From the IMG/VR virus record IMGVR_UViG_3300042402_003577, positions 1 to 64,000 of that record: a stretch of 64,000 bases of DNA. One strand, given 5' to 3'. The notes beneath the pieces are model-generated. The model saw only the letters and a list, made by a program, of their open reading frames with translations, was not told the DNA's origin and did no database searches. Shown here piece by piece: positions 2,515-34,100 of this stretch. The DNA is from a virus. Made by a program: the position numbers and the translations under genes. Positions within the stretch are counted from its first letter, which is position 1, and each line of letters starts with the position of its first letter.

Positions 2515-2555
2515 AAAAATAAAAGCCTCTCTTAACGGAGAGGCTTTTATTATTT
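2515..2555. terminator. Bidirectional Rho-independent terminator between the convergent modules
   Basis: ATAAAAGCCTCTC-TTAACG-GAGAGGCTTTTAT perfect stem with A/T tracts on both sides. Confidence 0.9.
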
Positions 2556-8856: not shown

Positions 8857-9351
8857 TTAATTTCCCTTATTTAACATATCCCCAATGTAATGGTCTACAA
8901 TGAGTAAGTCTGAGGAAAGTTTCAATACGTCTAATATGTTGTTAATCTCGTCAATTTCATGCACTTGTTCTGCATTAAATTTTTGAGCCAGTGTGAGTAG
9001 GTTGTAATCAGGTTCATCCATAGCATGTTTTGTTAGCTCAAGACACTGCTTTGTTGTTAAAACTTCTTGCTCGTAAACCTTATCAAAAATATCCTGTAAA
9101 GAAGAGAAAGTATTAACAGGTTCTTCTATTGTTGCTAACTCAGGCATAATATCAAAAGAAAGAAGATATTCTTTAGCCCAACCAGCGTGTTCCAATTCTG
9201 AAAGATAATTGTGCTTCATAAATTCTGCTGAGTTTATTAATGATTTGTCTGTTAGCCACAAATACATTTGCTCATACAATTTAGAAGCTGTTTGTTCTTG
9301 TTGTATTCTCAAGTTTAAGATGTCTATTGTTTTTTGAGATATTAATTCCAT
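8857..9351 (-). CDS. Ferritin (non-haem FtnA-like)
   Basis: 164 aa with ferroxidase-like pattern LNLRIQQE..AS.LY, ELEHA, EQE..TT, EQVHE. Confidence 0.85.
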   Translation of the reverse strand: MELISQKTIDILNLRIQQEQTASKLYEQMYLWLTDKSLINSAEFMKHNYLSELEHAGWAKEYLLSFDIMPELATIEEPVNTFSSLQDIFDKVYEQEVLTTKQCLELTKHAMDEPDYNLLTLAQKFNAEQVHEIDEINNILDVLKLSSDLLIVDHYIGDMLNKGN

Positions 9352-9397: not shown

Positions 9398-12300
9398 CTA
9401 GACACAGTCAGGAATTGAAGTAGTATCTTCAAGATTTTCTGAAGGAATCTTATAAGCCCATTCTGGTAATATTCCTACTTTTTGGTCGGCAAATTTCATC
9501 ATTTTATAAACTTGATCTGAAAGTACTTTAGCTTCCGCTAATTTACCTTCTTTTCTTAGCTTTCTTGCCTCGTCTCTTACTTTAAAGGCTTCATCATTTA
9601 TTCCTGAGAAATTAACAAAAGAGTTTTGTCCTCTAGTTTCAGATGTTATAGCTTTTCTAGCAGTTGGGCTATACATTTGAACGTGGACTCTCCAAGCGTT
9701 TTCTTCCCCTACAGGTCCAAATCCATTACCAAGTTTTGCGTGGCCAAAGAAATCATGTACAAATCTGAAAACATCATTTGCTAATAAAGGCACATTATTT
9801 GCATCTTTAAACTCTGTTACTTGTAGTAAAGGATTTTCCTTTCTTTGTTCTTCTGTAATAGGGGTGTCACCAAACCCAGCCTCTGTGGAAAAAATTTTCA
9901 TTCTTTTATTCTCTCTCAAATCATCAATCATTTCTTGAGCATTATCGTATTCAGAAGTACTCATTTCTACTCTATACCCTTCTGCCAAAATGGCTCTATG
10001 TTGGGCAATCGTTTCTTCGACTAATGCTTTATAGGCCTCCTGAGTCTCTTCTTCAAAAGGGGTGGCTACCATATCATCATAAGCTTTTGAAAGTCTAATA
10101 GCAAAAGGTTTGTCAATTTTAGTGATGGTGTTGTCTACCATTGGTTCCAAACCATTTTCTTCATTATATTTATTTGCAATTGTTGTAGCATCTAGTAATG
10201 GATTATTAAATAATCTATTTCCTGGAGCTACTACTACAGATTTTTGTACTAGCTTATTTTCTTGCCCTTCCTTAGAAAGTCTTCCTTTTCCTAATCCCGT
10301 ATTACTTGTACCTGTTACTGTACTTCTAAATAATAATTCTTGCTTTGCTCTATTTCCTTCTATTTCATCTATACTTCTACCTTGCTCATCTAATATATCA
10401 AAAGCAGAATATTTCCCAGAAATAAGAGTTAATACAGGTTTAATTTTTTTATTATTCTCATCAACCATAATTAATCCATACCCAAAAGTAGAATGATCTT
10501 TAGATTCATCTATTTTAACAGGATTTGTAATTTCAATAGAAGCATAAATGTCTGAACCACTTAATCCTTTAGTGAATTTTTCCGCTGAAACTAAAGCAAT
10601 TGTGTTGATAAAATCGTCTACTTTAGAAACATTTTTAACATTTGTATTTAAAAAATTAGCAATTTGTTCTAGGTTTCCCTTAAAAGATTCTTTTTTAGCC
10701 ATATTCCCTAAAATAGATTTTAAAACATTGCCTCTCTTTTCAAAAGAAGATGCATTAACATCTGAAAAGTTTGCATCTAAAGCATCCTTTATTTGTGTTA
10801 CACTTGCGGTTAAAGGTATATCTAAGGTTATATCATAAGATTTTAATGCATCTATAACTGATCTTCTCATATCTTGTCTAGATATTAATTCAGCGTCTAA
10901 AAGGGCTTCTGCCACTTTTAAAGTAGATGTTACTCCTTGTGGATTACTTAGTAATTTAGCGTCAGATCCTTTTGTTAACACTAAGTGAGTTTTTCCTCCA
11001 TTTTTCAATAAGGATTCATTAATGGATTTTATAGCAGCATTAGCCCTATTTAGGTTAGAATATGCCCAGACGTTTCCATATTTAGTTACATAAAATAGCC
11101 CTCCATTTCCTTCTGTAGATATAGAACTACTTATTTTTTCTCCGTCTACGTTTAGTATAGAAACATTTCCTACTAACATATCATCAGGAGAAGTAGTCAC
11201 AAAAACTCCTCCCTCTAAATGATTTAGATTATCAGTTTCTTTTAGCAAACCTTGTTCTATTAATTCTTGTTTTTTACCTTCTTCGATGTAAACAACTTCT
11301 ACTTTTACTTTATCGTCTCCATAGATTTGATTAGCGTACAAGGCTTCTATAGGGCTTCCTTTAAATAAATCCGTAGCAATTGCTCTAGAAAACTGGTTTA
11401 AATCCATGGCTTGAATTTGTTCAGAGGTATATTGAGATAATCCTAATATTTGGCCAATAGCATTCCACAATTCTTGTAACCAAGACTTAGTTTTAGCACT
11501 ATTTTCCTCCACAAGTTTTGCCCCGTTATCCCCAATTGTTTGAGCTAATACTTCTTCTAAAAATGCATCACTGTCAACTTTTAGATCAGGCTGTGTTTCC
11601 ATTACATATTGTCTATAAGGCTCTGCTTCTTCAGATTTAGCTAATTCTAAACCTCTTTGATAGATTTCCTCAAGATTATTTTTAGCCCAAGATAACCATA
11701 AATGTCCGAATTCATGGATTGAAGTGTCAAGATTCATCTTATCCATGTTCAAATAAACATCTCCATTATAAACAAATCCTGCAGTAGTTAAATTGATTCC
11801 TTTGTCGGATAATTGTTGGTATCTTATATCATTGCTTTGAGTGCTGAATGAGCCTATATTTTCGGTGGCTGATTTAATTTGGTTTGGCGAATACACCGCT
11901 ATATTAATACCTTCACTTTCATTTGTTGCAAACGAATCATAGTTTTCTTTTATGAAAGTTTGCAGTGTAGGTGTCTCTAACAATTTCCAATCGTTACTAC
12001 CTCTCCTAAGTATAATTTTTATCTTTTCACTTTCACTTAGATTAGCCCAGTCTTCTGTGATTTGTTTCTCGGACTTACTATAATCATTTAAAAGCCAATC
12101 ATAATCTTCAAAAAACATTTCTTCTTCTAAAGAATATTTTTCGTTAGCTTCCTTGTAAATATTTGTTGAATTTTTTTCTATGTAATTAATTAAATCTATT
12201 GGTAGTCCATCTTTTCTAATATGTAAAGTTTTGTTAGTTTTGATAAAAAATGAACCTATTCCCTGTGTATCTTTCCATATTACAGAGTTTTCTGCAATGT

Positions 12301-15300: not shown

Positions 15301-18300
15301 GCTGAATCACAGTTACTTCTGTTTCTTGAACAGGAATATCTGATTCCAATACTACTAAAGAATCTTCTTTCAAATTATCTGCAGTTGTTGCAGGAGTGTC
15401 TTCTTCGTCTAAAGGAATCTCATCAAATGATTCTACTTCTTCTTGAGTTAATAACCCTTCTTCTTCTAAGGTAGTTAATACAGGATCACTAGTGGTAAGT
15501 TGCAATAATGTTCTACTAATAGTATTATCATTATTGGCAATATAGTTGAAAGATTTTTTTTCTAAATTTAAATTAGTTAGTCCATTTTCAGTGGTATAAT
15601 TATTATATACTCTAATAGGAACAACATTAATAGAAGCCATAGTTATTCCGTTATCTTGGAAAATAGCTTGTATTTCAGTTAAATCATTAGACCAACCTGT
15701 AGCAGATGCTTCATAACTGCCTGAAAAAGATTTAAAGTCAACTAAGTGTACACTTCCTTCATTATCAACTACTGTTAATATAGGAGTGGTAGCTATACCT
15801 TCATATCCTCTTCCTTCATCCTCAGAAAGTTTTGAAGTTACTACTTCGTCATTAAACTTATAAGCAAATCCTTTAGCATCTAAATCTGATTTTAATGCTA
15901 ATATTGTTTCTGCTATAAATTGTAAACTTCTATTATCAATACCGACTTCTGTATCAAACCCAGATTCAATAATAACTTTATTGATTATCTGAGATACATT
16001 ATAAGGAGTTAGTAATAATGAGTTGTTAAATACTTGTTTAGCTATTTCACTAATAACCGCATTTGTCAATACCGTATTTCTCTCTTCTTGAGTCATCATA
16101 GTAGGAGAAACACTATACCCAGCAGGTTTGTATAAGTTACCGTCAACCTCAAACATAGGGTTCCCATTCACTTGTGTAATGATTTTCTCGACAAAAATAC
16201 CTGATATACCCTCTAAACGAGTTTCATCCTGGGTAGATAATTGTTTATTTAGATAGGTTTTTACTGCTTTTTTTGTTTGAGCATAAGACTTTTTATTTTC
16301 AAACCCTAGTCTTTTTGCGTATTCATATACTTGTTCTTTGTCTTCTAAAATAGCCTTTATGTCTTCCTTATTTTTAGGAGTAATAACTTGGGATCTATCT
16401 GAAGTTTGTTTTGCCCCTGTAGCGTATTCAAGGCCTATCAGTCTTTCTACATCTCCTAAAGTACCTTTATTTTCTGCTAATTTTTTAGTAGTGGCATTTT
16501 TTTCTTTAATATTATTTTTTGAAGCTTGGAATTCTTCCAAACTTATAGGTGTAAATTTAGAGTCTAATACTTCCACTCCATACTCTTTTTTCAATGTAGA
16601 ATTTGATTTCTTTAATGCTTTATATGCATCTAAATAATCCGCATAAGCATCGTTGATTTCACTTTGTTCAATCTCCTCATCAGTAGCGTCTACTCCTGCC
16701 ATAGATTGTAATTTCTCTTGTAATACTAAACTGGCAGTTCTAAACTCATCACGCCTAGCTATGGCCTCGTTTTGTGTATCAAATCTACCTGCTTTATATT
16801 GCTTCTTTAAAGTATTGATAGTTTTATCACTAGTCTTAATAGTCTTCTCTAAGGTTTGCTTTTTTACTTGTAATTCTTGGGTGTCTGTACCATCTATTAC
16901 AGCAGTTTCTATCTCAGCGTTTACTTTTTCCAATTGGCTCATAGCCATTTGTTTATCCATAATAGCATTGCTTACTGCTTTATATGCATAACTACCCTCC
17001 TGACTATTTCTTGCTCTTATAAGGTCAGTAGCTTCAGAAGTAACTTGATTTAACTCTTGTATATATTGCTTTTGAACAGGCTTAGTTTCTTTGTTAAAAG
17101 TATCTATAAAGTTAGTTAAATTGTTATTACTTAATTGAAGTTGCTCATAATCACTAATTTTTTTACCTAATTCTTCAGTAAGAGGATTGCTACCCACTGT
17201 TTTATAGGTACCTTCAGGAGAAACAGAGACGTTTCCTTTGGCAGCTTCTTCATCTAAAGCAATTTTCTTTTCAGCTAATTCTCTTTCATTTAAACTTTGT
17301 CTGATAATAGCATTGTCAAAAGTTCTACCACTATTAACTTTAGATAAACTTTCTTCTGTCAACCCAATAGAGTTTGCAAAGCTTTTTATTACAGGATTTG
17401 CAAAATTTAAGGTAGCTAAAGCTTCATCATTAACTCCAAGTTCTGATTTTCTTGCATTATAAGAGTCTTTTAATGCGCTATAATCAGTCATCATTTTTGC
17501 TTGGTCTGCTTCAGAAAAGTTATTATTACCACTCTGAGTCATAATATCTACCATAGAAGTAAAAGTAGCTTCATTTTCAAAAGCTGTTTTTAAATAATCT
17601 TCTTTTGAAAAAGGACCTTTAGTTGACATAGATTGAACTATATCCATTCCTTGAGATAATGTACTACCAGTGAAAAAAGAAGTTATTGCTACATCTGGAT
17701 TTAAAAAATTCAAATCCTTTAAAGTTTCTTGGTTATATGCTTTATCTCCTGTTATTTTTTCATTAATAAAATTAGCTGCAACATTAACAAGTGGCTCTAA
17801 TATAACTTCTTCTGTAGCTTCTTGTCCTCCCACTTTTGCCGATGTTTTTAAAACTCTTCCCGCTGAAGACATAATATTTTGAAACATTACTTTGTTAATA
17901 GCTGCATTGGTTAACTTTTCCCTTAAAGTTATATCAGGAATTTTAGCAAATTCTTTGTTAATAATTTTCACAGCTTCCGAAGAAGCTTCAATAGCTTCAG
18001 GCATTATCACCTTGTTTATATCATTCCCAGTTAGTCCTATTGCTTTACTTTCTAAAGTAGATGTAAGCAATGTAGCAAAAGCCAAAGCACCAGAAGTAGC
18101 TAGTGCAGGAAAAGGATTGTCTTTGTCCTGTGCAGCTTCTTGATATTTCTTATAGATTGAAGGATATTGTTCCGTCATGTTACTAGCGACATTAATCATA
18201 AACTCAGCTCCCTGGGCTAATCTCCTCTCATTAGCCGCTCCTCTTATTAATGCTCCTGCAATTTTACCTGCACCTGCTCCTACTAACAAAGATGGCATTT

Positions 18301-21777: not shown

Positions 21778-24700
21778 TTATCTTTTATATCTGTTAGCTG
21801 ATAAAATATTATCTAATAAAGTCCCCGCAATAGGATTATTATAAGAACCTGTATTTCCTAAAATTTGATTTACAAACATTTGTCCTTGTTCTCCTTTAAA
21901 CATATCTGGTTTAGAAGCCATAATATTTAACATTTCCATTTTTTGATTTTGTTCTTTTTGAGCGTTTTCTCCCATGCTTTTAGAGTATTCTGAATATATC
22001 TTTGCATCTTTAACAGCTTTTTCCCCAAATAAGTTCCTTTTAAAGTTCAACATATTTTGCATATTAGTTAAATTCTGGTTTCTAACCCCCATATTACTAC
22101 CTAATAAATCTTGTTGAAGTCCTTGGGTTTCATTATATAGAGCTACATTTGTCTGATTTAACTTACTTAAAGTATCTCCAAGTTGGTTATAAGCTTGAGC
22201 CCCTGCATTTGCAATATTACCTGCTAATGTACTCCAGTCTCCTGTTTGGTTTGCTAAAGCATTTGCAGTGTTTCTTTGAGCTCTTTCGATATTATATAAA
22301 ATATTTCCTACAGGTACTTCGTTCTTTCTGCTTCTGATATAAGTATCAGGAGTTTCCATTATATATAATGGATTTTGTGCAAGACCTGCCTCAAGTACAG
22401 CTTGGTTGGCCCCTAGCCCTCTACCTAATTGACCTTCAAGTAGACCAAAGTTAAATCTATTCTGCATAGGAACTCTTGCCGCAGGAGCTATTGGAGTATT
22501 TTCACTTAATATCTGTTGTTCTGCTTTTTGTGCAGGAGTTTGATTTGGCTCTAATTTGGTTCTTACAACATTAGGTACAACTATATTATTTGGATTAGCA
22601 GGATCATATCCCCATCCATAAGCTTCATTTAATCCTTGAGATTTCATCCAAGCATCTTTTTCAGCATTTGAAGAAAAAGTTTGAGGTATAAATCTTTGGG
22701 TACGTCTGTCCCACTGTGCATCTAAGTTATTACCTGTATTTAATATTTCCAATTCTTTTGGATCAGTAATAACACTATATATATCTTTTAATGCTTCAGG
22801 AGATAAATTAGCTACTTGTCCATAAGTTCCTTTATTAGAACTATTTACTCCATATTTTTTTAATTTATTAACAAATTCTTTATTGCCTTGTAAGTCTTGT
22901 ATAGTTTTCCAAGTAGGAGCTACAGATTTTGCAGTAATATTTCTATTAAAATCAGGGTTTAATTTATCTACAGCTATTTGTCTAATTTCTTGTACTTTCT
23001 TTAATGCATCTTGATAGCCTTTGCTATTTTTTAGTACAGATTCCTTTAAATATCCTGGATCTTTTGGATCCACCGTTATTTTAACATAAGCAGACTCTAA
23101 ATCATTAAATTCTTTTTCTGATAAAACATTTTTTAATGTTTGAAAGTTATCTCTAAACCATCTATAAGCTTCTGGAGAACCAGGGTCCCAAGTACCTCCT
23201 TTCCAAGAAGAGTTTTGATAATTATTAAATCTATTTTCAGAATTTGCGTTCGCCCTTTCTTTATCACTAAATGTTCTATTGGGATTATAATTTTTAACCC
23301 CTTTAGGTATATACCAAGGCTGGTAAGTATCTAAAGCAACAAAGTTACCTTGTGCATCTAAATATCCTGTAGCAGGTGTTGCCCCAGATATATAACCTTC
23401 TTCAGGAGGTACCGATGTAAAATTTCTGTTTCTACTAAAATAATCTGCTGCTGAGTTTACCGCAGTAGGCGTTCCTTCATTACTAATTCCTAGGTTAGAG
23501 AGCATACCCACATTATAATCAATAGGATTTCCAAACTCATCTAATTCTGGTCTGTTATATATAACTCCCATATTTCCACGGGTTCCTCCTTGATATTTAT
23601 TCACCATTCCTCCATAAGCCATCATTTGTTCTTCCATAACAGCTCCCTCTGCTAATTCTTTTCCTGATTTAATTAAATCATTCATTTGTATAGACAAGTC
23701 TAAGTAGGCTTTTTTGTTACCTTCTTTTAATTTGTCAGTATCAAAAGCATTTGGAGTAGATTTATTTTGATATTTATTTTTAGCATACTCAGAAATATCT
23801 GCAGGAGAAAGTTTTTTACCGTTTTTCTTTCCGTATTTACTCTGATATACTTGTGATAATTTTTTAATATCTTGCTCTGCATTTTCAGGCTTAAACATCT
23901 GCATCAATTGTACATACTGGTCAGGAGTAAGTTTATTACGAGCACTTTGAATGTGTGATCCTCCAGGTAATAAATCTGTTACTTCTCCATCTGACATATT
24001 TTCGTGAGATGTAGTAGCTTCTACTGACTTAATTGTGCCATCAGGAAGAGCAACTTGTTCTGCCTGTCCTTCAAAAGTTTCTGTCTGTACAGGAATACCT
24101 TCTGTCATGCTATTTAACATACCTCCTTCTTCATATATTCTACCTCCCATAGCTTTCTTCCATCCTGCAGCGTTCTTTGCAAAATTAGCCATTTTTACTA
24201 CGTCAGCAGTATATTTACTTCTATTAGCCATTACTTTATTGGCAGCTTCTTGAACAGTCATTCCTCGTTTAGCCGCCCATTCAGTAAACTTACCTTCATT
24301 GGCAGGGTTAATATTAATTCCTCCGCCCATAGCATACATAAAATCATCTTCTTCATACCCCATCATAGGACCTGCTATCATGCCGCCTCCTGGGTACATT
24401 GTAGGATAATTGTAATCTGCTTGATAATCCATCATATCACTTCCTACCATACCACCCCCAGGGTAATACGTTGGATATTCTACATATCCCCCCATATTAT
24501 AAGGATTCTGACCTGCAAGCATTAATTGTTCTACTTCAGGAAGGATTCCCCCATCGGCCCAAGTACCAAATCTTTTGTGCCAATATAATGGAGAAAACGG
24601 ATCCCTTGCTTTTGCTGAATCTTTTCCTCCCATTCTTGACCAAAAATTATCTCTTCTTTTTTCAGACTTATGTTGTTTGAAATCTTGCATTCCTCTCCAT

Positions 24701-25428
24701 CCGCCTTGAACTACTTTATATTTATCGTCTTTTTTAGCTAAGACTTTCCATTTATGTTTTCCGTCACCTTGTTTCTTTTGACCCACTTTGGTGAATCCCA
24801 TATTCTTATATCTCTGAGGGATTCCTCCTCCATCTGCATACTCCTCTACTTCCCCGCCCATAGACATGTTAGAGATTATATTTTCTTGAACAGCTTTTGG
24901 TAAAGCTTTAAATCCTTCATTATTAATTCCGCCTCCGTTATAATAACTGTCTACCATACCACCCATAGCCATATTAGCTATTATGTTTTCTTGTACAGAT
25001 TTAGGAAGTGCTTTAAATCCAGGATTATCAATGCCTCCGCCCTCAGCATATTCATCTACATATCCCCCCATTGCAGCTTTTTTCCATTTACCACCTTTTT
25101 CTTTATACCATTTAGCAGCAAAACCATTTGCATACGCTGAAGGGTAAACATCATATTTTGATTTAGCAGCAGCTTTAGCCTTACTCCATAATGAAGGATT
25201 GGTAGGAACATTTCCTCCATTTGCCATTTCTTCTACCTCCATTTCTTCCATATCAGATTCCTCATCTTCGTTTTCTTGTTGTTGGTATTTAGCAACAATT
25301 TCTTTGGCTTCAGGATGAGCTTTGAAAAATGTTTCCTTATTTGGAAACTTTTTGTAAAATTCAGCCTCTGTCTTTACACCTGCTATTTTTAATAATAATT
25401 CTTTCATATTAATTTTTTTAAATTTCAT
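21778..25428 (-). CDS. Putative cargo protein with ~16 xxxGG-delimited modules
   Basis: Repeated MANGG/YAEGG/YADGG-type motifs and a Q/N-rich coiled C-terminus. The start may be 25407 (MKELLLK). Confidence 0.65.
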   Translation of the reverse strand: MKFKKINMKELLLKIAGVKTEAEFYKKFPNKETFFKAHPEAKEIVAKYQQQENEDEESDMEEMEVEEMANGGNVPTNPSLWSKAKAAAKSKYDVYPSAYANGFAAKWYKEKGGKWKKAAMGGYVDEYAEGGGIDNPGFKALPKSVQENIIANMAMGGMVDSYYNGGGINNEGFKALPKAVQENIISNMSMGGEVEEYADGGGIPQRYKNMGFTKVGQKKQGDGKHKWKVLAKKDDKYKVVQGGWRGMQDFKQHKSEKRRDNFWSRMGGKDSAKARDPFSPLYWHKRFGTWADGGILPEVEQLMLAGQNPYNMGGYVEYPTYYPGGGMVGSDMMDYQADYNYPTMYPGGGMIAGPMMGYEEDDFMYAMGGGININPANEGKFTEWAAKRGMTVQEAANKVMANRSKYTADVVKMANFAKNAAGWKKAMGGRIYEEGGMLNSMTEGIPVQTETFEGQAEQVALPDGTIKSVEATTSHENMSDGEVTDLLPGGSHIQSARNKLTPDQYVQLMQMFKPENAEQDIKKLSQVYQSKYGKKNGKKLSPADISEYAKNKYQNKSTPNAFDTDKLKEGNKKAYLDLSIQMNDLIKSGKELAEGAVMEEQMMAYGGMVNKYQGGTRGNMGVIYNRPELDEFGNPIDYNVGMLSNLGISNEGTPTAVNSAADYFSRNRNFTSVPPEEGYISGATPATGYLDAQGNFVALDTYQPWYIPKGVKNYNPNRTFSDKERANANSENRFNNYQNSSWKGGTWDPGSPEAYRWFRDNFQTLKNVLSEKEFNDLESAYVKITVDPKDPGYLKESVLKNSKGYQDALKKVQEIRQIAVDKLNPDFNRNITAKSVAPTWKTIQDLQGNKEFVNKLKKYGVNSSNKGTYGQVANLSPEALKDIYSVITDPKELEILNTGNNLDAQWDRRTQRFIPQTFSSNAEKDAWMKSQGLNEAYGWGYDPANPNNIVVPNVVRTKLEPNQTPAQKAEQQILSENTPIAPAARVPMQNRFNFGLLEGQLGRGLGANQAVLEAGLAQNPLYIMETPDTYIRSRKNEVPVGNILYNIERAQRNTANALANQTGDWSTLAGNIANAGAQAYNQLGDTLSKLNQTNVALYNETQGLQQDLLGSNMGVRNQNLTNMQNMLNFKRNLFGEKAVKDAKIYSEYSKSMGENAQKEQNQKMEMLNIMASKPDMFKGEQGQMFVNQILGNTGSYNNPIAGTLLDNILSANRYKR
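24851..25050 (-). repeat. Intragenic tandem duplication, ~105 bp (35-aa) unit
   Basis: GGGIDNPGFKALPKSVQENIIANMAMGG versus GGGINNEGFKALPKAVQENIISNMSMGG. Confidence 0.85.
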
Positions 25429-28135
25429 CTAGCCATCCACCGCTAGTTTTTTTCTGGGATGATATGTAACCAAAATATTTTCTTTGTTTGTCTGTTGTAA
25501 AACTCTTATCGTGCAACATTTTTTTAGCCTTAGTAGGAGTTAATCCTCCTTTACCAAATTCTTGTATATCTTCATACATATAATCAATCATACCTCCGTC
25601 TTGGAATCCTATTCCAGACAAGCTACTCATAATATTTCCAAATCCTTTCATACCTGTTGCCCCTCCTTTCATATTACCCATCATTCCTTTTAAGCCTCCC
25701 ATATTTTTAGCCATTCCTACTCCGCCTTTAATGTTTCCAAATAAACCTGAAGCAGTATCCATCATATTACCAAAATCTTGCGAAGCATTAACCATTCTAT
25801 TACCTGAAATATATCCTGATTTATCATAATTAGATAAAGCATCTTTTGCTTGAAAAGTTCCAACTGTACTACCTACTCCTTCTCCTACATCTCCTATACC
25901 TTGGCCAACCATTCCTATATTTCCTGTAGCAACTCCGCCAATAACTTTTGCGGCACCACTTGTTACATTACCTACACCTCTACCCACAGTATAGCCACCC
26001 GTTCTAGTTAAGAATGAATCTCCTACAATATCTTTTGTAACATCTCCTAAAATTGGAACTGTACTCATAATACCTAAATAAGCACCAACAGGTTCTTTTA
26101 AAAAGTTAAATGCACCCCAATCTACTTTATCATCTTGAAAAGATTGTCTATCTTTTCTTACTTTTGTATTTAAAAAATCGTTTGCATTGGCAGCCTGTAA
26201 ATCAGCTAAAGAAGCTCTATTACTACTAGCGTTAAATACTCTAGGAGAATTATTTACATTACCATAACTATCTCCATATATTCCAGCCAATCCTCCTCCA
26301 TATTGATATTTTCCAATTCTACCCCCATTCATATTCACTAAATCATTTAGATTAACTCCCATATCATAAGGAGTAGTATCGTCAGTAAAATGCACTCTAG
26401 GAACTGGATTATAGTTTTCGTGAAATACATTACTTTTATGAATATATTCAGGGTCCCCTACTGGTAACATATCCATACTTCCACCATCTTGATATTTACT
26501 TAAATATCCTCCATTTTTTTGACTTAATAAAGACATTCCTTGTAAAATACCTTTACTTCCTGCTCCCCCTGGCAGTCCTCCAAAAACTTGACCAGTTCCA
26601 TCTCCACTCATTCCTCCAGATATTCTACCAGCTATTGATTCTAAATCTGTATCAAAAAGATTTGAACCAGTTTTACCCTCTGCAAAATTTAAAAGTTTAT
26701 TATAATCAAACATCTTTTTAGCGTCATCACTCAAACCCTCATAGCCTGTCTTAGGCATACCCATATTGCTCATCAACCCTGTTATCTGGTTAACACCTTG
26801 ATTTACAGAACCTAATATATTATTAATTCCTGAAAATACACTTGGTTGGTTAATTTGTTCTTCCATGTTTTCAATAGTATCAGGCATAACAGATCTAAAG
26901 TAACTGTTATCTTGATACAATTCAGGACCTACACCAAAGCCTTTATAACCTTCTTGATAATCAAGGTAGCCTCCTGCTGGATATTTTTTAAATTTATTTT
27001 TCATATCATTATATATTAATCCCCCGTCTTCTTTTTTGTGATTATAATCTATTCTTTCAGATGAAGTTTTTTCTCTTTTAAATTTTGCTTTTTCTGCACT
27101 GCTTAATTCCGATGCAGTTTTAGGGGTATCACTACTTATTCTTTTAGAAGGTCTACAAGCTGGGTACCCTTTTCTTTTTTCTCCTTTTTGTCTGCCACAT
27201 TCCTTACCTGTTTTAACGTCTATCCACTTTTCAGCAAACCATCTATCTAATCCTCCATGTTTTCCCCCATCTTTCATTATAGGTATTTCTGTTACTTGGT
27301 CTACAGAAAAGTTGTCATTTACTTCTCCCCCCATTTCAAATTTTTTTAAAAGTGGAGCTGGTCCCCAAGATTTTAACTCTATATCACTATAAACAGGTAC
27401 AGGATCTTTAGAGTTATACATAGTATTTAAATATTTTACATATTCTGGATTTTGGTTTAATACATTATCCCTTAAATCCATTACTTGCTTTCCATACAAA
27501 GGATTTTTTTTCATGTTTATTCCTGTACTTGGAACAGGTACTCCATAAATTTTTTTCATTTTAAACCCATGATAACCTTGTTCTGTACTAGGCTTTACTA
27601 CTCCAAGGCCGTTGTATACTTGCAACCTAGTGGCATCATCTTTTATACCTAACCTATCTGCTTCCTTCATTTTAGTTATATAAGCATTAGTTAATGCCTC
27701 TAAATCACTTCTTGAAGTTAAATCTTCTAATACATGACCAAGATTTTCATCCTCTTTCCCAAACTTAGTTTCTTGAAAAGCTATAGCTGCTAAATTTTTA
27801 ACATCTTCTATTGGCAGTTTTTTTCTTTTAGCAGATTCTATTATTCCTTTTAAAACTTCTAAATCATATTCTCCAGACGTTATGTCAACATTTGGCCTTA
27901 TTGGCTGCCCACTTGTAGCTAAAACTTTTCTTTTGTCTTCAATTTTAAATGTTTTAGGGCTGCTTTTTGCAGGGGTAGATTTAGGTTTTGGTTTATTAAT
28001 TGTTTCAGTAAAAAACTCTTTTATTGCATCAACAATCCCTCCATCAGCATATTCACTAATAGAAAATTCCTCAGAGTAGTTATCTAACCACCCTGAAGAA
28101 TTAGTTTTATTAAGATTAGCCTTCTTTTTAGCCAT
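25418..28135 (-). CDS. Putative cargo protein directly after the muzzle gene, with a lysozyme/SLT-like domain, a DUF5872-like module and a Gly-rich hydrophobic segment
   Basis: LAAIAFQETKFG...VYNGLG, GLDRWFAEKWIDV..CGR..YPACRP, and ~12 xxxGG motifs. Confidence 0.65.
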   Translation of the reverse strand: MAKKKANLNKTNSSGWLDNYSEEFSISEYADGGIVDAIKEFFTETINKPKPKSTPAKSSPKTFKIEDKRKVLATSGQPIRPNVDITSGEYDLEVLKGIIESAKRKKLPIEDVKNLAAIAFQETKFGKEDENLGHVLEDLTSRSDLEALTNAYITKMKEADRLGIKDDATRLQVYNGLGVVKPSTEQGYHGFKMKKIYGVPVPSTGINMKKNPLYGKQVMDLRDNVLNQNPEYVKYLNTMYNSKDPVPVYSDIELKSWGPAPLLKKFEMGGEVNDNFSVDQVTEIPIMKDGGKHGGLDRWFAEKWIDVKTGKECGRQKGEKRKGYPACRPSKRISSDTPKTASELSSAEKAKFKREKTSSERIDYNHKKEDGGLIYNDMKNKFKKYPAGGYLDYQEGYKGFGVGPELYQDNSYFRSVMPDTIENMEEQINQPSVFSGINNILGSVNQGVNQITGLMSNMGMPKTGYEGLSDDAKKMFDYNKLLNFAEGKTGSNLFDTDLESIAGRISGGMSGDGTGQVFGGLPGGAGSKGILQGMSLLSQKNGGYLSKYQDGGSMDMLPVGDPEYIHKSNVFHENYNPVPRVHFTDDTTPYDMGVNLNDLVNMNGGRIGKYQYGGGLAGIYGDSYGNVNNSPRVFNASSNRASLADLQAANANDFLNTKVRKDRQSFQDDKVDWGAFNFLKEPVGAYLGIMSTVPILGDVTKDIVGDSFLTRTGGYTVGRGVGNVTSGAAKVIGGVATGNIGMVGQGIGDVGEGVGSTVGTFQAKDALSNYDKSGYISGNRMVNASQDFGNMMDTASGLFGNIKGGVGMAKNMGGLKGMMGNMKGGATGMKGFGNIMSSLSGIGFQDGGMIDYMYEDIQEFGKGGLTPTKAKKMLHDKSFTTDKQRKYFGYISSQKKTSGGWLDEI

Positions 28136-31100
28136 TAACGCATGGATATGTTATAGTTAAGGACTGTAAATTTAAGTATAAATTTTAAATTTTCTAAATC
28201 TTTATTATCTATATTGACTCTATAGTTAAAGAAATTATTCTCAAGCCTATCTACTTGGGTCCAATCCTTAGCAAAACTTACATTAGCATTAGGGACTGGG
28301 AAAATATCTCCATCCACAAAATTAATAGTATCATCTAATACATAATTAGCTAAATTATTGCAATATACAATACCATTTATTATACTGTGAGGCTCATTGC
28401 TTAGTACAACATTTTTCATATAATCCTTATCAATAGGAGTTTTTAAGAAAATTTCTCCACTATGTTGTCTACTAGTCCAAACCTGTAAGCTTGTAGGCAC
28501 TTCATTGGTAATTAATAGCTGTCCGTTAACATTTTTATATGCATCTATTTTCATACCAACATTGTTAAGGGTTGTGTACAATAATGGATGATAAGTGAAC
28601 ACCCCGTCAACTAAAGAAGGGTAATTAACTCCATAAAATTTTCTATAAGAATTAAAGTTATCTTCATGTATATAAAGATTATAATTGTCATCTTGGGTAA
28701 AGAAAGTGTCTCTATTCTGAATATATGCCATTGGTAAATACGAATGGAAAGAATAAAAGGCCTTATCTTCTGGATAATAACTGAGGGTAAACCCGTTTGT
28801 TTTATCTGTTAGTAAAACTCTCCTATGTCTATAATCATATCCAAAATAAATTTCCACTGTAGATAAATCTGGATTTGATTGAGGTATAATAGGTAAGTTA
28901 GTGTTTGTAGAAGCCCCATAAGAATTAAAATAATTATTCCATTGATCCTTAAAGAAACTGTTCATACCATAAGTAGAAATTGCATCTAATTTTCCGCCAG
29001 ACATTAGATTTAATGTTTGGTTTTTTAAGTCTGCAAAGAAATATCCAGTATTATTTTGAAACCTAAACCTTTTATCTTGCAATCCCATATAGCCTTCATT
29101 AGAAGCAAATAACTCCAATTGTTGAGCACTTAGAAAATCATTTGTACCTAAATACACTAGACTATTATCTGCCTGTAATTTTGACTCAAGAGTCAATAGT
29201 CTCCAAATATTATCTGTAGTATGTGCATATAAAATTTGACTCTCTTTAAATAAGTTTGTTATTTTTCCTTCTTTATGAGGAAGAGTTACAAAACTATTTT
29301 TAAGGAACTTACTGTAATTTAATCTTCCCACTGCTTCATTATCAGCGACTGATATAGCTATTCGGTTGTCATATTCTGCATCACAATCACAAGTTTTATA
29401 ATCTTTATTTATAGGTTTAAAGAAATTAAATCTCATTCCATTTAACTCATTGTAATCGTTATTTAGATTTATTTTATTATCATGGAAGTTTTTATAAGCA
29501 TCATTATATTCTACCTCATCATAATTAGTTGAGGTACAATTATCGTTTTGATCTCTACAAATCAACTCGTAAAAATAAGTATTTAAGAAGCAGTCTTCCG
29601 CATATTCATTTTTTCTATTAGAAAATAAATAGTATTTACCATTAGATAATTTAGGGTAGTACACTTCATTAAAGTTAGGTCCTTCATATCTTAAATCTAA
29701 GTTTACATCTGACTCTGTAACAGTATTTATTAAAGTTACATTTGCTTTTTGAGCAAGATATAAATTTAATAAATAAGAGTCTTTATTTCTTCCTATTATT
29801 GATTGAATTGTATATGTAGGGTCTCCTCTATCCATCCAAGCAGCACTATTATCATCTATATAAGAATCTTCTAGCATACCCGTTACCCCTGTTCTTACAA
29901 AAGAAAAAGTATTAATATAACTATCACCATAAAACCCTGTCAAAGTACTTTGACCCGCACATCCTTTTAATCCTGTATCAATAAAAAACATTTCCTCAAT
30001 ACTTCCATATTGTCTTGATAAATTATTTTTTATAGATCCATAATAAATATAACCAATGTTACATTCATCTAATATTCCTGGCGCAGTGGTATTATCCAAA
30101 TAATCATCAAAATAAGAAACCCCTGATGGAACAAAAGGAGCAGTAGCTGTAACAAAAACATCCGAACTACCTACAGTAAGAGGGGGCCCTCCAGTTCTAG
30201 TTAAAGTAGTGCTATTAGTAACAATAAATGTATTTGAATTAGATATTACTGATGGAACAGTAGAATTACTTACAATAATTGTAGTACCTACAGGATAGTT
30301 GTTGGTGTAACTAACTAAAGTTGTTGAAGTTGCTGTAAATGTTTGTTCTGCTGCATAGTTAGGTATTTTTTGCAACCATAAAAAATTAAATATAGATCCT
30401 ATTGATGAAACAGGAAAAGTACCTGAGTTTATTTTTGTAAGTTCTACAAATTGTTGTGGAGGAAACCCAGAAATAGGGCCAAGATTTGTAACTTCAAACT
30501 CATCTCCTGGTAATAAAGGAGAAAAGACTCCTGGGCTATAAACAAAATATTTTTCATTTAAAATATAATTACCTGGAGATTGAGCATTAAGTCTTATTTT
30601 ATTACCAGATATTATATTATAACTAATTACTGAAAACCAATCAAATGGAAGAGAACTTCCTCCTGCGCCCGTATAACATTTCTTACTACTTGTATCTGAG
30701 TTGAAAAATTCTAAGTTTTTATTAAAAGACAAATCTGACTTTAATTGATAATCTAAATAAACCCCGCTCTCTCTGTAAAAATTAACTAAAGAATATTCAG
30801 AGTTTAATATCTTATTTAAGATTACATTATCATTTACATAAGAGTAATTGTCTATACAAATATTTTTAAAGTTATACTTTAAAGATCTATTTTTATAACC
30901 ATTAGTTCTATCAATAGATCCGTCTGTATTTTGCACATAACCATAATCATAAAAGTTATATATTTGAACTGCAGCAGATCTCAGTCTACCGTCTTTATCT
31001 TTAAAGGTAGAAGGGTCTATTACTGGTTCCCCACTATTAGAATTTGTAGTATTTACCCCATTTATAGAGTCTATATAATATCCTACGGTATTGTATTGTT

Positions 31101-33138
31101 GCTCTATCTTAACATAGTTTACGTTTAATCCTTGTTGAGCAAACATAGTATTTCCCCCATAAAACATAATACCATTATCATAATGTGTACCATATCCACA
31201 ATTTTTAACAAAATCTTGAATAGGGCTGGAAGTTTCTATAGTCTTATCTCTAAGATTTGAAAAATAATCCCATTTAGCTGCGGCATTAACATTATGTTTA
31301 GGGTATATAAAATCTTGTCCATTAAGATTGTTTTTGAACATTTCAACAAACCAACCTTTATCTTGTACTGATTTATTAAAAGTATCTCTTCTTACATATA
31401 CTACTCTATATCCTGTAACTTTAACTCCTCCCGTTTCTTCTAAAGTAGGCATTACTACCCCTTCTAATTTTATACCTAAAGGATAAATCTCTAAACTATC
31501 ATATTTACTATCATATCTATTTTTATTGTCCTCAATAGCAAAATCATCTGTAATATTATTATGAAAAGGCTCAATAGTTGAGTCTGGCATTTTAAATAAA
31601 GTAATATTTTTTCCTGTAACTTTTTTAGTAATAGGATCAATATCTACAGGATACATATATCCACTTTGTTGTTCTGGGTTTCCTGCACATCTAGGTATAA
31701 CAGGGTATTTTTCTTCTGACTCAAAGTATCCTAAATATCCTTCAGATCTAATATTGTTAGAATCATTATCAATCGTTCCTGAACAAAAATCTGTCACACT
31801 AAGATCTCCTGCAAATTCATTATATGCAGTTCTTTTTGCTGTATTAACCTCTTTCCAATATTTTCTATCATCTGTACAACAAAGAACAGTATCATTAGTT
31901 TGAGGGTTTTCTATATTCCAGTCGGGAAAAGGAGTATATTTTTTATTAATCAAAGGAAAGACTGGAGATTCTGACATATCTTCAAATTCCAATACAATTC
32001 CTATCATATAATTTTCATCCCTCATCCAAGATTTGTGATGAATAACATGCTCAGGGTTTTTATATCCTTTTGTTCTACTTAAATTTATTCTTCCTGTAAC
32101 GTATTTTACAGATATATCATTAGCATAAGGCTGGTAATCAACATTTTTAATTCCTCTTACTCCTGCAATTAAAAGTTTGTTATTATAAATCAAACCATGT
32201 TTTGCTGATACATAAAAAGCTCTTTTATTTAAAACTTCTGCCAAATCTACAGTTTCAGTAAAAGTAATATCTCCCCCGTAAGTAACTGTAATATTTTGTG
32301 AGACAGGTTGCAGTCTTTTAAATATAAAAGAAGTAGATACACCATTAACTGTTTTTATGAACCCTACGTTCATATAAGGATATTTAGTATCTACATTTTC
32401 AAATAATAGTACAATACTTTTATTTAAAATTTTAGAAGGATTACCATCAATATATTGAAATGTACCTGAAACACTATCTTCTATTAAAGGAATATTCTCA
32501 TTAATAATATAATAGTTAGTAGTATTGCCATCAGTATCTTCATACTGAATAAAAGGTCTGTATACTCCTGCATCTACATTATATGCAGAGTTTTCAATAA
32601 AGCTTACATCTGCTAAATTAATGCAAGTTTCAGCAGTTTTAAATAACTCTAATTCTTCTATATTTCCAGAACCAGGCCCCTCTTTAAGATACTTAGTTAC
32701 ATTAATATTTCGCACTCTGTTTTTACCATCCCAAAAAATTAATACAATATCTTCACACTCTGTTTTTGTAAAAGAAACTGATTCTAAATAGATATTAAAA
32801 TCTAACCCTGGGTCCGAATACAAGAGAGTGTAAGTATTTAAATTAGGATCATACAATCCTATTTCATTTGTATGTAAAAATACTACAACTTGATTGAGTT
32901 GTTTAATTAGATTAGAATGTAAAACTTTCCCAGGCAACTTGAGTCTAAATGCGTTAGAATATTCTGTGGTGAGAAAATTTTCATCCCCTTCAGAAGATTC
33001 TTTCACCATATTCAAAGCTGCTCTATAGGTATCTGCAGGCTGTGCTTCTGGAGAGGCATCTACATTTATACCTTTAGTAAAGGTATAATTTTTTATATCT
33101 TGAAAACTTCTTGTTTTATTACTATTTTGCTCTGCCAT
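28135..33138 (-). CDS. Tail stabilization/muzzle protein (crAss-like; P22 gp10-like role)
   Basis: 1667-aa beta-rich protein with N-terminal KGINVD..P..QP..TYR.ALN and late TLSY.......SFHSYLP motifs; lies after a ring protein and before the cargo genes. Confidence 0.8.
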   Translation of the reverse strand: MAEQNSNKTRSFQDIKNYTFTKGINVDASPEAQPADTYRAALNMVKESSEGDENFLTTEYSNAFRLKLPGKVLHSNLIKQLNQVVVFLHTNEIGLYDPNLNTYTLLYSDPGLDFNIYLESVSFTKTECEDIVLIFWDGKNRVRNINVTKYLKEGPGSGNIEELELFKTAETCINLADVSFIENSAYNVDAGVYRPFIQYEDTDGNTTNYYIINENIPLIEDSVSGTFQYIDGNPSKILNKSIVLLFENVDTKYPYMNVGFIKTVNGVSTSFIFKRLQPVSQNITVTYGGDITFTETVDLAEVLNKRAFYVSAKHGLIYNNKLLIAGVRGIKNVDYQPYANDISVKYVTGRINLSRTKGYKNPEHVIHHKSWMRDENYMIGIVLEFEDMSESPVFPLINKKYTPFPDWNIENPQTNDTVLCCTDDRKYWKEVNTAKRTAYNEFAGDLSVTDFCSGTIDNDSNNIRSEGYLGYFESEEKYPVIPRCAGNPEQQSGYMYPVDIDPITKKVTGKNITLFKMPDSTIEPFHNNITDDFAIEDNKNRYDSKYDSLEIYPLGIKLEGVVMPTLEETGGVKVTGYRVVYVRRDTFNKSVQDKGWFVEMFKNNLNGQDFIYPKHNVNAAAKWDYFSNLRDKTIETSSPIQDFVKNCGYGTHYDNGIMFYGGNTMFAQQGLNVNYVKIEQQYNTVGYYIDSINGVNTTNSNSGEPVIDPSTFKDKDGRLRSAAVQIYNFYDYGYVQNTDGSIDRTNGYKNRSLKYNFKNICIDNYSYVNDNVILNKILNSEYSLVNFYRESGVYLDYQLKSDLSFNKNLEFFNSDTSSKKCYTGAGGSSLPFDWFSVISYNIISGNKIRLNAQSPGNYILNEKYFVYSPGVFSPLLPGDEFEVTNLGPISGFPPQQFVELTKINSGTFPVSSIGSIFNFLWLQKIPNYAAEQTFTATSTTLVSYTNNYPVGTTIIVSNSTVPSVISNSNTFIVTNSTTLTRTGGPPLTVGSSDVFVTATAPFVPSGVSYFDDYLDNTTAPGILDECNIGYIYYGSIKNNLSRQYGSIEEMFFIDTGLKGCAGQSTLTGFYGDSYINTFSFVRTGVTGMLEDSYIDDNSAAWMDRGDPTYTIQSIIGRNKDSYLLNLYLAQKANVTLINTVTESDVNLDLRYEGPNFNEVYYPKLSNGKYYLFSNRKNEYAEDCFLNTYFYELICRDQNDNCTSTNYDEVEYNDAYKNFHDNKINLNNDYNELNGMRFNFFKPINKDYKTCDCDAEYDNRIAISVADNEAVGRLNYSKFLKNSFVTLPHKEGKITNLFKESQILYAHTTDNIWRLLTLESKLQADNSLVYLGTNDFLSAQQLELFASNEGYMGLQDKRFRFQNNTGYFFADLKNQTLNLMSGGKLDAISTYGMNSFFKDQWNNYFNSYGASTNTNLPIIPQSNPDLSTVEIYFGYDYRHRRVLLTDKTNGFTLSYYPEDKAFYSFHSYLPMAYIQNRDTFFTQDDNYNLYIHEDNFNSYRKFYGVNYPSLVDGVFTYHPLLYTTLNNVGMKIDAYKNVNGQLLITNEVPTSLQVWTSRQHSGEIFLKTPIDKDYMKNVVLSNEPHSIINGIVYCNNLANYVLDDTINFVDGDIFPVPNANVSFAKDWTQVDRLENNFFNYRVNIDNKDLENLKFILKFTVLNYNISMR

Positions 33139-33149
33139 AGCTTAACTTA

Positions 33150-34100
33150 TTAATATCTTGTAAAACCGTTATTTATTTTTTGTGATTTTCTCTGGTCTAA
33201 GCCATGATATTGATTAGGCACCAAAAATTGATTTGTAGCTTCACCCATAGCCCACATTTCTTCAAATGTTTGAGCATTCATGTCTTCTCTCGCTTTAATT
33301 TTCCATTTTGAATATTCTCTATCAGCTAGTTGGAAAAAGTTTAAATCAGCACCACTTCTGCTCTTTCTATATTGTATATAAGCAAACTTTCTTTCTAGTG
33401 CTGCAATTAAAGCATTTGTATAACTTCCCATATTTGGAACTAACGGAAGACCATCTTCTCCAATTGGTATTCCCAAATACCCAATTAATAAATCCGCTTC
33501 TTTAAAGTCTGTTATAATATATCCATTATCTATGGTAAAAAAATGTGAAGGGTGTAAATGAATCCCCAATTCTCTATAATTTAAAAGCGATACTTCATTT
33601 TTTTGAGGTTGTAATACTATCCATCTTCTTGGGTCCGTAGTGTACCATTGCGTAAAATCTTGTACTGTTGCAAACTTGAAACCTTTTGCTTGCTCTAGAT
33701 TATTGATAAATAAATATCCTGCAGTTTCTATATAGTTTTGTTCACAATTACAATGTTTATCTTCAGGGCATTTACAAACTCTTTTATACTCCCATGTACA
33801 GTTTTCATTACCTGGCTCTTGTCTAATGTACTCTGTCAAGAAAAAAGCTTCTTCTTGAGGTCGTATAGGTTGTGCCAATACATATAAAGACTGTCTAAAT
33901 CCGCAAGGAAGCTGTGCTTTGTAATTTCTTATTTTAAGCTTCTGTACTCGTTCTTTATATTGCTTATAAGTCCCAATATCGTTATAAGCATCTAAGATCC
34001 ACTCAGTGAGTAGATCTTCGTTAAAGTTTAATTCTGATACTGCAATTTGTTTCCAGTTTTCAATTACAGTGCTTATAGGTACTAATTCTATATTAATCAT
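33150..34100 (-). CDS. Tail ring/tubular protein (crAss-like)
   Basis: IRNYKAQLPC, YIITDF..A.L.IGY.GIP..EDGLPLVP; immediately upstream of the muzzle gene. Confidence 0.7.
   Translation of the reverse strand: MINIELVPISTVIENWKQIAVSELNFNEDLLTEWILDAYNDIGTYKQYKERVQKLKIRNYKAQLPCGFRQSLYVLAQPIRPQEEAFFLTEYIRQEPGNENCTWEYKRVCKCPEDKHCNCEQNYIETAGYLFINNLEQAKGFKFATVQDFTQWYTTDPRRWIVLQPQKNEVSLLNYRELGIHLHPSHFFTIDNGYIITDFKEADLLIGYLGIPIGEDGLPLVPNMGSYTNALIAALERKFAYIQYRKSRSGADLNFFQLADREYSKWKIKAREDMNAQTFEEMWAMGEATNQFLVPNQYHGLDQRKSQKINNGFTRY

Follow-up and report, generated by a model that had tools for sequence, protein, structure and literature searches.

A conserved bulky-x-x-Gly-Gly motif marks the joints of two modular cargo-position proteins in a crAss-like phage

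Main

Do the Gly-Gly motifs that punctuate the cargo proteins of a crAss-like phage mark places where those proteins are cut, or places where they are held? We studied a 64,000-nucleotide stretch of viral DNA (positions 1 to 64,000 of IMG/VR virus record IMGVR_UViG_3300042402_003577; hereafter, the window) from a crAss-like phage of a Bacteroidota host, in which two minus-strand open reading frames (ORFs) directly after the muzzle gene carry strings of such motifs. The first cargo-position protein, P0002 (905 amino acids (aa); 25418..28135), has 12 copies and the second, P0001 (1216 aa; 21778..25428), has 16 copies of what we call the joint motif, with the core bulky-x-x-G-G-x-hydrophobic. An initial annotation, made from the sequence alone, had proposed that the copies are either protease sites or docking motifs, and that they let new modules be added in a plug-and-play manner.

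We find that the joint motif is real, conserved and apparently undescribed, and that it resides in proteins of a known kind; literature searches returned no published description of such motif strings, and nothing relevant on proteolysis of crassvirus cargo. The explanation that we rank first, with a little less than even confidence, is that the motif stays uncut and serves as a junction or handle peptide that is specifically recognised. Crassviruses rank with the most abundant phages and carry many megadaltons of cargo protein, and the motif offers a concrete, mutable handle on how that cargo is chosen, packed and ejected.

A motif enriched in two cargo-position proteins

Both ORFs were present as initially annotated, and all 28 motifs that had been listed were recovered in the order given. 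The 16 copies in P0001 are MANGG68, AAMGG118, YAEGG127, MAMGG153, YYNGG162, MSMGG188, YADGG197, WADGG290, YNMGG310, YYPGG321, MYPGG344, YAMGG365, KAMGG425, YEEGG432, MAYGG603 and KYQGG611, and the 12 in P0002 are YADGG29, FEMGG266, MKDGG287, KEDGG368, YPAGG385, QKNGG, YQDGG548, NMNGG, YQYGG610, FQDGG844, FGKGG860 and KTSGG896. All of those in P0001 lie within its N-terminal 616 residues (motif-rich part, residues 68-616; 23581..25227 (-)), and its conserved C-terminal half has none.

The pattern [YFMW]xxGG occurs 16 times in P0001 against a mean of 1.6 in shuffled sequences, with none of 5000 shuffles reaching 16, and 8 times in P0002 against a mean of 2.1, a count reached in 9 of 5000 shuffles. 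The preference for a bulky first residue noted initially is borne out, as Tyr, Phe, Met or Trp occupies that position in 21 of the 28 motifs compared with a background of 13.6% (binomial P ~3e-13). Enrichment against the rest of the proteome was checked in the complete genome, a single contig of 105,849 bp that is 100% complete by CheckV: P0001 and P0002 are its only motif-rich ORFs, and all other ORFs of at least 80 aa together hold 11 matches, with a maximum of 2 per ORF.

Close pairing of the motifs, also part of the initial annotation, proved regular. In seven cases, four of them in P0001 and three in P0002, neighbouring Gly-Gly pairs are spaced by exactly 9 residues, and the doubled unit is better written as GG-h-h-x-x-Y-x-x-GG. 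An RTX-type nonapeptide repeat, which likewise has a 9-residue period, was rejected as an identity for this unit, as the GxD calcium-binding positions are missing and there are at most two tandem units.

Conservation and module exchange

A large protein collection contained 556 relatives of P0002 and 1126 of P0001 of similar length, and 1729 additional shorter proteins matched P0001 residues 60-460. Across ~360 relatives, no residues are better conserved than the Gly-Gly pairs. Glycines of the motif show 88-93% identity between orthologues, compared with 71-72% for other glycines, and most are invariant or nearly so. A logo of 1140 distinct contexts in relatives reads K-Y-Q-[N/D]-G-G-Y-[I/L/V], with enrichment of Y/M/F at -3, Q/A at -2, N/D at -1, Y at +1 and I/L/V at +2 around the pair.

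That the motifs sit at domain borders is confirmed by homology break points in relatives. BLAST break points cluster at residues 28-46, 272-287 and 367-381 of P0002 and at 72-73, 122-131, 157-164, 190-193, 294-299, 351-369, 429-438 and 615-619 of P0001, all of them motif places. Over all pairs, 33% of internal break points fall within 5 residues of a motif compared with 11% for random positions, an excess that may in part be made by the aligner, because a local alignment can run through a shared motif.

The same clustering would arise if a GGNGG repeat in the DNA served as recombination microhomology and the peptide were a mere translation of it. We consider such a DNA-level exchange signal barely credible and rejected it on codon variation: glycine is encoded there by any of its four codons without a fixed pattern, the codons at the neighbouring Y/M/F/W positions are unrelated, and conservation holds at the protein level over wide divergence. 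The varying Gly codons indicate that selection acts on the protein or peptide, not on a DNA repeat. Internal starts, with Shine-Dalgarno-like GGAGG followed by ATG, were rejected as well, since the Gly codons vary; Bacteroidota make little use of Shine-Dalgarno-like sites.

Cutting 240 relatives in silico at the motif gave 1453 segments, which fell into 167 clusters and 169 architectures. The clusters are tight in length (for example, 87-89 aa, exactly 65 aa, or 35 aa for a zinc-ribbon-like piece), and the same clusters occur in both protein families in differing order. One cassette, the Tlr6F-like module of P0001 with its flanks (residues 195-300), was searched against 1.84 billion representatives. 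The matches comprised 332 clusters (242 with E<=1e-30), from proteins 134-2662 aa long, in which the cassette sits at relative positions from 0 to 0.92. Among 137 distant representatives, the left-flank motif was retained in 132 and the right-flank motif in 134 (96-98%). The plug-and-play proposal therefore holds in that both proteins are strings of small autonomous modules, which relatives gain, lose and reorder at motif joints; relatives of P0002 and P0001 also carry ART-PolyVal, SET, YkuD or SLT domains.

Gene order from tail ring protein 1 and the muzzle onwards is shared by 15 related IMG/VR loci: in each, motif-rich ORFs fill only the first one or two positions behind the muzzle gene, and the giant genes beyond them are without the motif. 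The Flavobacterium psychrophilum phages (Fpv1 and others), the closest cultured phages by muzzle protein, have no joint motif in the two genes after the muzzle gene.

Modules of the two proteins

From its N-terminus, P0002 consists of an N-terminal tag, an SLT-like domain, the C-terminal half of DUF5872, a conserved block, a Gly-zipper segment and a C-terminal tag. The domain initially labelled SLT-like is helical (residues ~90-250; 27386..27868 (-)), and the label could not be confirmed: there was no Pfam match, profile searches of the PDB with P0002 gave no match, and the nearest GH23-type fold match was weak (chitinase 3w6e, E=3, TM 0.44). The DUF5872 half (residues 291-357; 27065..27265 (-); Pfam PF19197) scored 54.8 bits against a cut-off of 27.5, covering only profile positions 51-110 of 116, and shares 68% identity with a stand-alone 86-aa protein of Prochlorococcus phage P-SCSP2. 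The Gly-zipper-rich helical segment (residues ~700-830; 25646..26038 (-)) is probably membrane-active.

The counterpart of the DUF5872 N-terminal half lies in P0001, where module 10 (residues 73-117; 25078..25212 (-)) resembles it (PSAYAN...YKxxGG); in small podophages this module is a stand-alone gene of 56-59 aa. Tandem units of ~35 aa follow (residues 118-201; 24826..25077 (-)), each a doubled motif, GG-x7-GGG, and then a GFKALP helix; gp45 of crAss001, the cargo protein with which P0002 and P0001 are compared below, has a similar FQALP stretch after its ring-bound helix. Next comes the Tlr6F/DUF5754-like cassette with both flanking motifs (residues 195-300; 24529..24846 (-)). Its residues 219-266 scored 26.3 bits against DUF5754/Tlr6F (PF19058), just under the 27.4 cut-off, and many close relatives of P0001 have a precomputed PF19058 assignment. 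Tlr6F is a small orphan protein of polinton-like viruses, virophages, giant viruses and some phages (PMC4642659, PMC12220804, bioRxiv 10.1101/2022.07.28.501842).

The podophage P-SCSP2 has the two DUF5872 halves as separate tiny genes between its scaffold and capsid genes, without the motif, and a 36-kb contig, Roseobacter phage CRP-207 and phage C72C1 have a similar arrangement. P-SCSP2, a T7-like cyanophage, has a row of five tiny basic genes between its scaffold and major capsid genes (OM416780.1 11658-12636), two of them encoding the DUF5872 halves, which suggests that the halves are head-internal proteins in that phage too. The 36-kb IMG/VR contig has the halves in two overlapping reading frames (9971-10409 of the compared stretch), which could reflect a frameshift, programmed or erroneous, or a true split. 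Tlr6F/DUF5754 and DUF5872 are widespread orphan viral families, and finding them inside a probably injected protein gives a testable hint at their role.

Searches of the PDB by sequence and by profile found nothing for either protein, and a fold search with the P0002 model gave no match at E<=0.001. The AlphaFold2 models were poor overall, with a mean predicted local distance difference test score (pLDDT) of 46.7 and 36.8, so only their confidence profile was used. Small helical modules were confidently predicted at residues 8-54, 73-117 and 380-426 of P0001, while the stretches between modules that hold the motifs have a pLDDT <50; P0002 is mostly of low confidence.

Comparison with crAss001 gp45

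In crAss001, the place after the muzzle is occupied by the cargo proteins C1 (gp45) and C2 (gp46) (structural atlas, PMC10172136). The window has the same downstream order, with the tail ring protein 1 gene (33150..34100 (-); Pfam PF24228) followed by the gene for a muzzle-like virion protein (1667 aa; 28135..33138 (-); PHROGs phrog_15100), the adjoining P0002 gene and then the P0001 gene. P0002 and P0001 correspond to gp45 by position, and by sequence apparently in part. They are probably the first two among the ejected cargo proteins of this marine-type crAss-like phage.

Gp45 (Bayfield et al. 2023, PMC10172136; PDB 7qog chain M; Pfam crAss_CARG1 PF25725) resembles P0002 in being encoded directly after the muzzle gene, in its basic MAKKK N-terminus followed by a bulky-x-x-GG site, and in its Gly-zipper hydrophobic segment, the P0002 segment resembling the predicted transmembrane region of gp45. 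With P0001 it appears to share a helical module (gp45 372-430; P0001 367-430, 24139..24330 (-)) that is flanked by Gly-Gly on both sides in both phages, by DGG373 and FGG427 in the gp45 copy, and that also has a homologue in the cr108_1 C1 protein. This is the sole matching module (P0001 367-436 versus gp45 372-435, BLASTP E=3e-5, 41% identity; hhalign probability 55%), and no credible match was found between P0002 and gp45.

Bulky-x-x-GG sites occur in gp45 at 209, 263, 332, 373, 427 and 562, and among gut crassviruses GG263, 332, 373 and 427 are also module borders. Two of these sites can be related to the published structure. Residues 425-437 of gp45 read AFGGWLNTQGGDF, and the cryogenic electron microscopy (cryo-EM) model of its portal-bound domain, residues 425-552, begins at this point, A-F-G-G-W-L-N-T-Q-G-G-D-F (PMC10172136); Pfam crAss_CARG1 starts at residue 424. 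That model, of the mature virion, shows the chain as ordered and with no break at GG427/428. The other ordered stretch of gp45, 214-245, begins 4 residues past AYGG209. According to the atlas, gp45 touches the portal and the rings and spans the tunnel between them (PMC10172136).

The two systems also differ. Content is spread over two genes here, unlike in gp45; the motif is about three times denser and its consensus sharper; and the payload, with its DUF5872 halves and Tlr6F-like module, is unlike that of gp45. The passages of the atlas matched by term searches do not mention the joint motif (PMC10172136), and, in the parts consulted, the crAss001 paper with sodium dodecyl sulfate-polyacrylamide gel electrophoresis gives band sizes and assigns none to gp45.

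Search for a protease

If the motifs were protease sites, P0002 and P0001 would be polyproteins. A zincin of the phage or a protease of the host would cut them behind each Gly-Gly, either within the head or once injected, and so release small effectors that are counterparts of the stand-alone proteins of other phages. The invariant Gly-Gly pairs at the joints fit this reading, as does the existence of the same modules as separate tiny genes without the motif in P-SCSP2, CRP-207, C72C1 and the 36-kb contig. Clan CE proteases of adenovirus and African swine fever virus (ASFV) cut after Gly-Gly, and such processed polyproteins (adenovirus adenain, ASFV pS273R), like ubiquitin-like precursors, share with the proteins studied here a Gly-Gly pair at joints or near C-termini. 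The analogy with adenovirus and ASFV drawn in the initial annotation holds for that pair and for nothing beyond it: no clan CE protease is found here, the bulky residue is at P5 as opposed to P4 in adenain or PLpro sites, and the prime side is conserved too. The homologous site at gp45 GG427/428, moreover, appears uncut, the chain running continuously through it in the solved virion (PMC10172136).

We screened the complete 105.8-kb genome in all six frames for six protease families at a threshold of E<=1 and detected none of them: adenain C5, Ulp1 C48, C39, MPTase-PolyVal (PF18818), HK97-type S78 and ClpP. The 'ClpP-like' domain of the initial annotation is left unsupported, as there is no Pfam CLP_protease match in the complete genome. 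Nor was a prohead protease found near the portal, scaffold and capsid genes, S78 and ClpP being absent and the ORFs between portal and capsid matching no family. Scans of individual proteins, including 54 further ORFs for which the best 25 of 35 families were considered, gave an M15 lysis peptidase as the only peptidase.

On sequence, the only candidate protease in the genome is a zincin-like HEFGH motif at residue 2876 of the packaged 3647-aa polyvalent neighbour, just after its ART-PolyVal domain (11702..11716 (-)). Zincins have been proposed to process polyvalent proteins, and DdrB of phage P1 is processed, whereas the N4 virion RNA polymerase (vRNAP) is packaged uncut (Iyer et al. 2017, PMC5512222). 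The HEFGH-bearing protein itself is without the joint motif. A cut at the C-terminal motif copies would free a mere pentapeptide, yet its five residues are conserved.

The evidence on the alternative posed initially thus leans against cutting, given that no protease family was found, that some copies are terminal, that both sides of the Gly-Gly pair are conserved and that gp45 is continuous. In ubiquitin-like precursors, short tails after Gly-Gly are trimmed, so the terminal copies are compatible with cutting, and we retain the protease reading, which extends to cuts at other sites or after injection, as unlikely.

End tags and disordered linkers

Both ends of P0002 carry a related tag. SGWLDNY (residues 14-20; 28076..28096 (-)) follows the basic MAKKK leader, and GGWLDEI (residues 899-905; 25421..25441 (-)) is followed directly by the stop codon. 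In relatives, GGWL[DN] is placed at 75 C-termini, in 55 N-terminal regions and at 16 internal sites, and the recurring endings directly before the stop are GGWLDEL, GGWLDEI, GGEIEYLD and GGYTFEII. Conserved motif copies lie 5-6 residues from the C-terminus, and others near the N-terminus. In the first cargo proteins, nearly all joints as well as the two ends bear the motif, which is shared from marine phages to crAss001.

In Carjivirus communis, the prototype crAssphage, the gene ahead of the C1 homologue encodes a small protein, KP06_gp48 (2192-2986 of the compared stretch), with three K/Y-x-x-C-GG-R/H-R sites, one of them at its very C-terminus; from their sequence, these appear to be a Cys-containing variant of the same kind of tag.

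Might the Gly-Gly pair serve simply as a passive hinge, giving flexibility between beads as they are threaded through portal and tail, with the bulky residues a by-product of linkers rich in Met, Tyr and Gly? The motifs do lie in the stretches with a pLDDT <50, the linkers are rich in Met, Tyr, Gly and Pro, and the crAss001 atlas argues that gp45 spans ~420 Å through the portal in an extended form, with cargo extruded partly unfolded (PMC10172136). Several features nevertheless make this explanation doubtful. The motif also occurs at protein ends, where a hinge is needless, and its 9-residue doubling is regular. Free linkers usually drift, but here both glycines and positions -3 to +2 are conserved across the ~360 relatives and the 137 distant representatives, and linker stretches are nearly invariant across orthologues, for example at P0001 310-320 and 345-373.

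Met, Tyr, Pro and acidic residues abound in the linkers between GGG sites at P0001 ~310-372 (window 24300-24500 (-)); these linkers are near-invariant among orthologues, yet predicted to be disordered.

A possible recognised junction

Sequence conservation within a stretch that lacks order by itself is the hallmark of a binding linear motif, and for this reason we rank a specifically recognised junction first. Each cargo protein is a chain of small autonomous cassettes, drawn from an SLT-like domain, two DUF5872 halves, a helical module of gp45 type, a Tlr6F/DUF5754-like module and a Gly-zipper membrane segment. What links the cassettes is the short linear motif, often doubled at the 9-residue period and reused as an end tag at both ends. 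Within otherwise disordered linkers, the motif would act as an uncut, recognised handle, binding a virion component or other cargo chains and thereby keeping the cargo ordered, extended and ready for ejection. As the handle sits between cassettes, these could be swapped without disturbing packing. Directly supported are the motif itself and how well it is conserved, its position where modules are exchanged and at protein ends, and, in one solved homologue, an ordered and uninterrupted chain; that the motif binds, and what it binds, we infer. Candidate partners are the portal, the tail rings, the muzzle, the capsid interior and other cargo chains.

Several points weigh against a recognised junction. 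The AlphaFold2 monomer shows no structure at the motif. The argument from continuity concerns one site in one distant gut phage, and the terminal copies, given the trimming of ubiquitin-like precursors, would be compatible with cutting. The portal-binding crAss_CARG1 domain (PF25725), which matches gp45 at E=2e-66 and the cr108_1 C1 protein at E=3e-58, was undetected in P0001 421-620 at E<=1 and in the whole genome, in six frames, at E<=10. The structural precedent accordingly covers a homologous motif and not a homologous domain, and P0001 and P0002 are not demonstrable members of the CARG1 family.

A bolder proposal, which we think somewhat improbable, is that bulky-x-x-G-G and its GGWLD end form are a portable tag by which crassviruses load and eject cargo. 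A small module of any kind, once flanked by the motif, would then be packed into the head and tail lumen and injected, which would explain the build-up of unrelated cassettes such as Tlr6F and DUF5872, free-standing in algal viruses and small podophages, and would provide a simple rule for loading foreign or chosen proteins into phage particles. Comparable short portable peptides, often repeated, that lie in disordered regions and tie cargo inside a shell are the encapsulin targeting peptides, the T4 capsid-targeting sequence and the carboxysome CsoS2 repeats. The joint motif has no sequence similarity to any of these, and the likeness is one of analogy only; the T4 capsid-targeting tag, for its part, is N-terminal and cut off.

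At the level of whole proteins, there is also a close likeness to the polyvalent proteins of phages and conjugative elements, which are large and delivered and combine, in shuffled arrangements, numerous effector domains unrelated to one another (Iyer, Burroughs, Anand, de Souza and Aravind 2017, PMC5512222). The same combination of many unrelated conflict domains with shuffling is seen here in the 169 architectures of 240 relatives, and the 3647-aa neighbour has ART-PolyVal together with an HExxH motif. Unlike those proteins, the modules here are mostly tiny (35-90 aa) basic cassettes, and MPTase-PolyVal, the zincin of polyvalent proteins, is undetected in this genome. The word 'linker' is absent from that paper, and the passages of it matched by term search describe no conserved joint peptide (PMC5512222). 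By analogy, P0002 and P0001 would function in the manner of crAss001 C1 and of these polyvalent proteins. The present analysis contributes the presence of the motif flanks in distant representatives, the codon evidence, the mapping onto structural and Pfam borders in crAss001, the six-frame protease screen and the negative result in cultured Flavobacterium phages.

Genome context

The window has a G+C content of ~31% and is organised as a single long minus-strand operon with giant ORFs. Besides the genes described above, Pfam recognised the crassvirus major capsid protein (54112-55689), a P22-like portal (56985-59495) and ring protein 2, and PHROGs recognised the large terminase.

From its listed ATG (25428), P0001 would run over the end of the P0002 gene for 11 nt. 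Met8 (base 25407; 10 nt past the P0002 stop) is the likelier start, because relatives begin there.

Beyond P0001, the 3647-aa protein (9398-20341 (-)) has ART-PolyVal at residues 2639-2832 and HEFGH at 2876, with no DxDxD, and a 2075-aa protein (2554-8781 (-)) has a lone DGDVD at residue 486. Neither giant protein matched an RNA-polymerase family of Pfam; other crassviruses pack a virion RNA polymerase. Between these two giant cargo genes of the late operon lies a ferritin-like gene (8857-9351 (-); Pfam Ferritin E=1.8e-20).

The structural block also encodes a leucine-rich-repeat protein (49885-50973 (-)), and C-type lectin, cohesin, collagen-repeat and type IX secretion system (T9SS) sorting domains occur among the 54 further ORFs. 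The proteins with these repeats and domains are probably parts of host-binding fibres, pointing to a Bacteroidota host, as the T9SS sorting domain in particular indicates.

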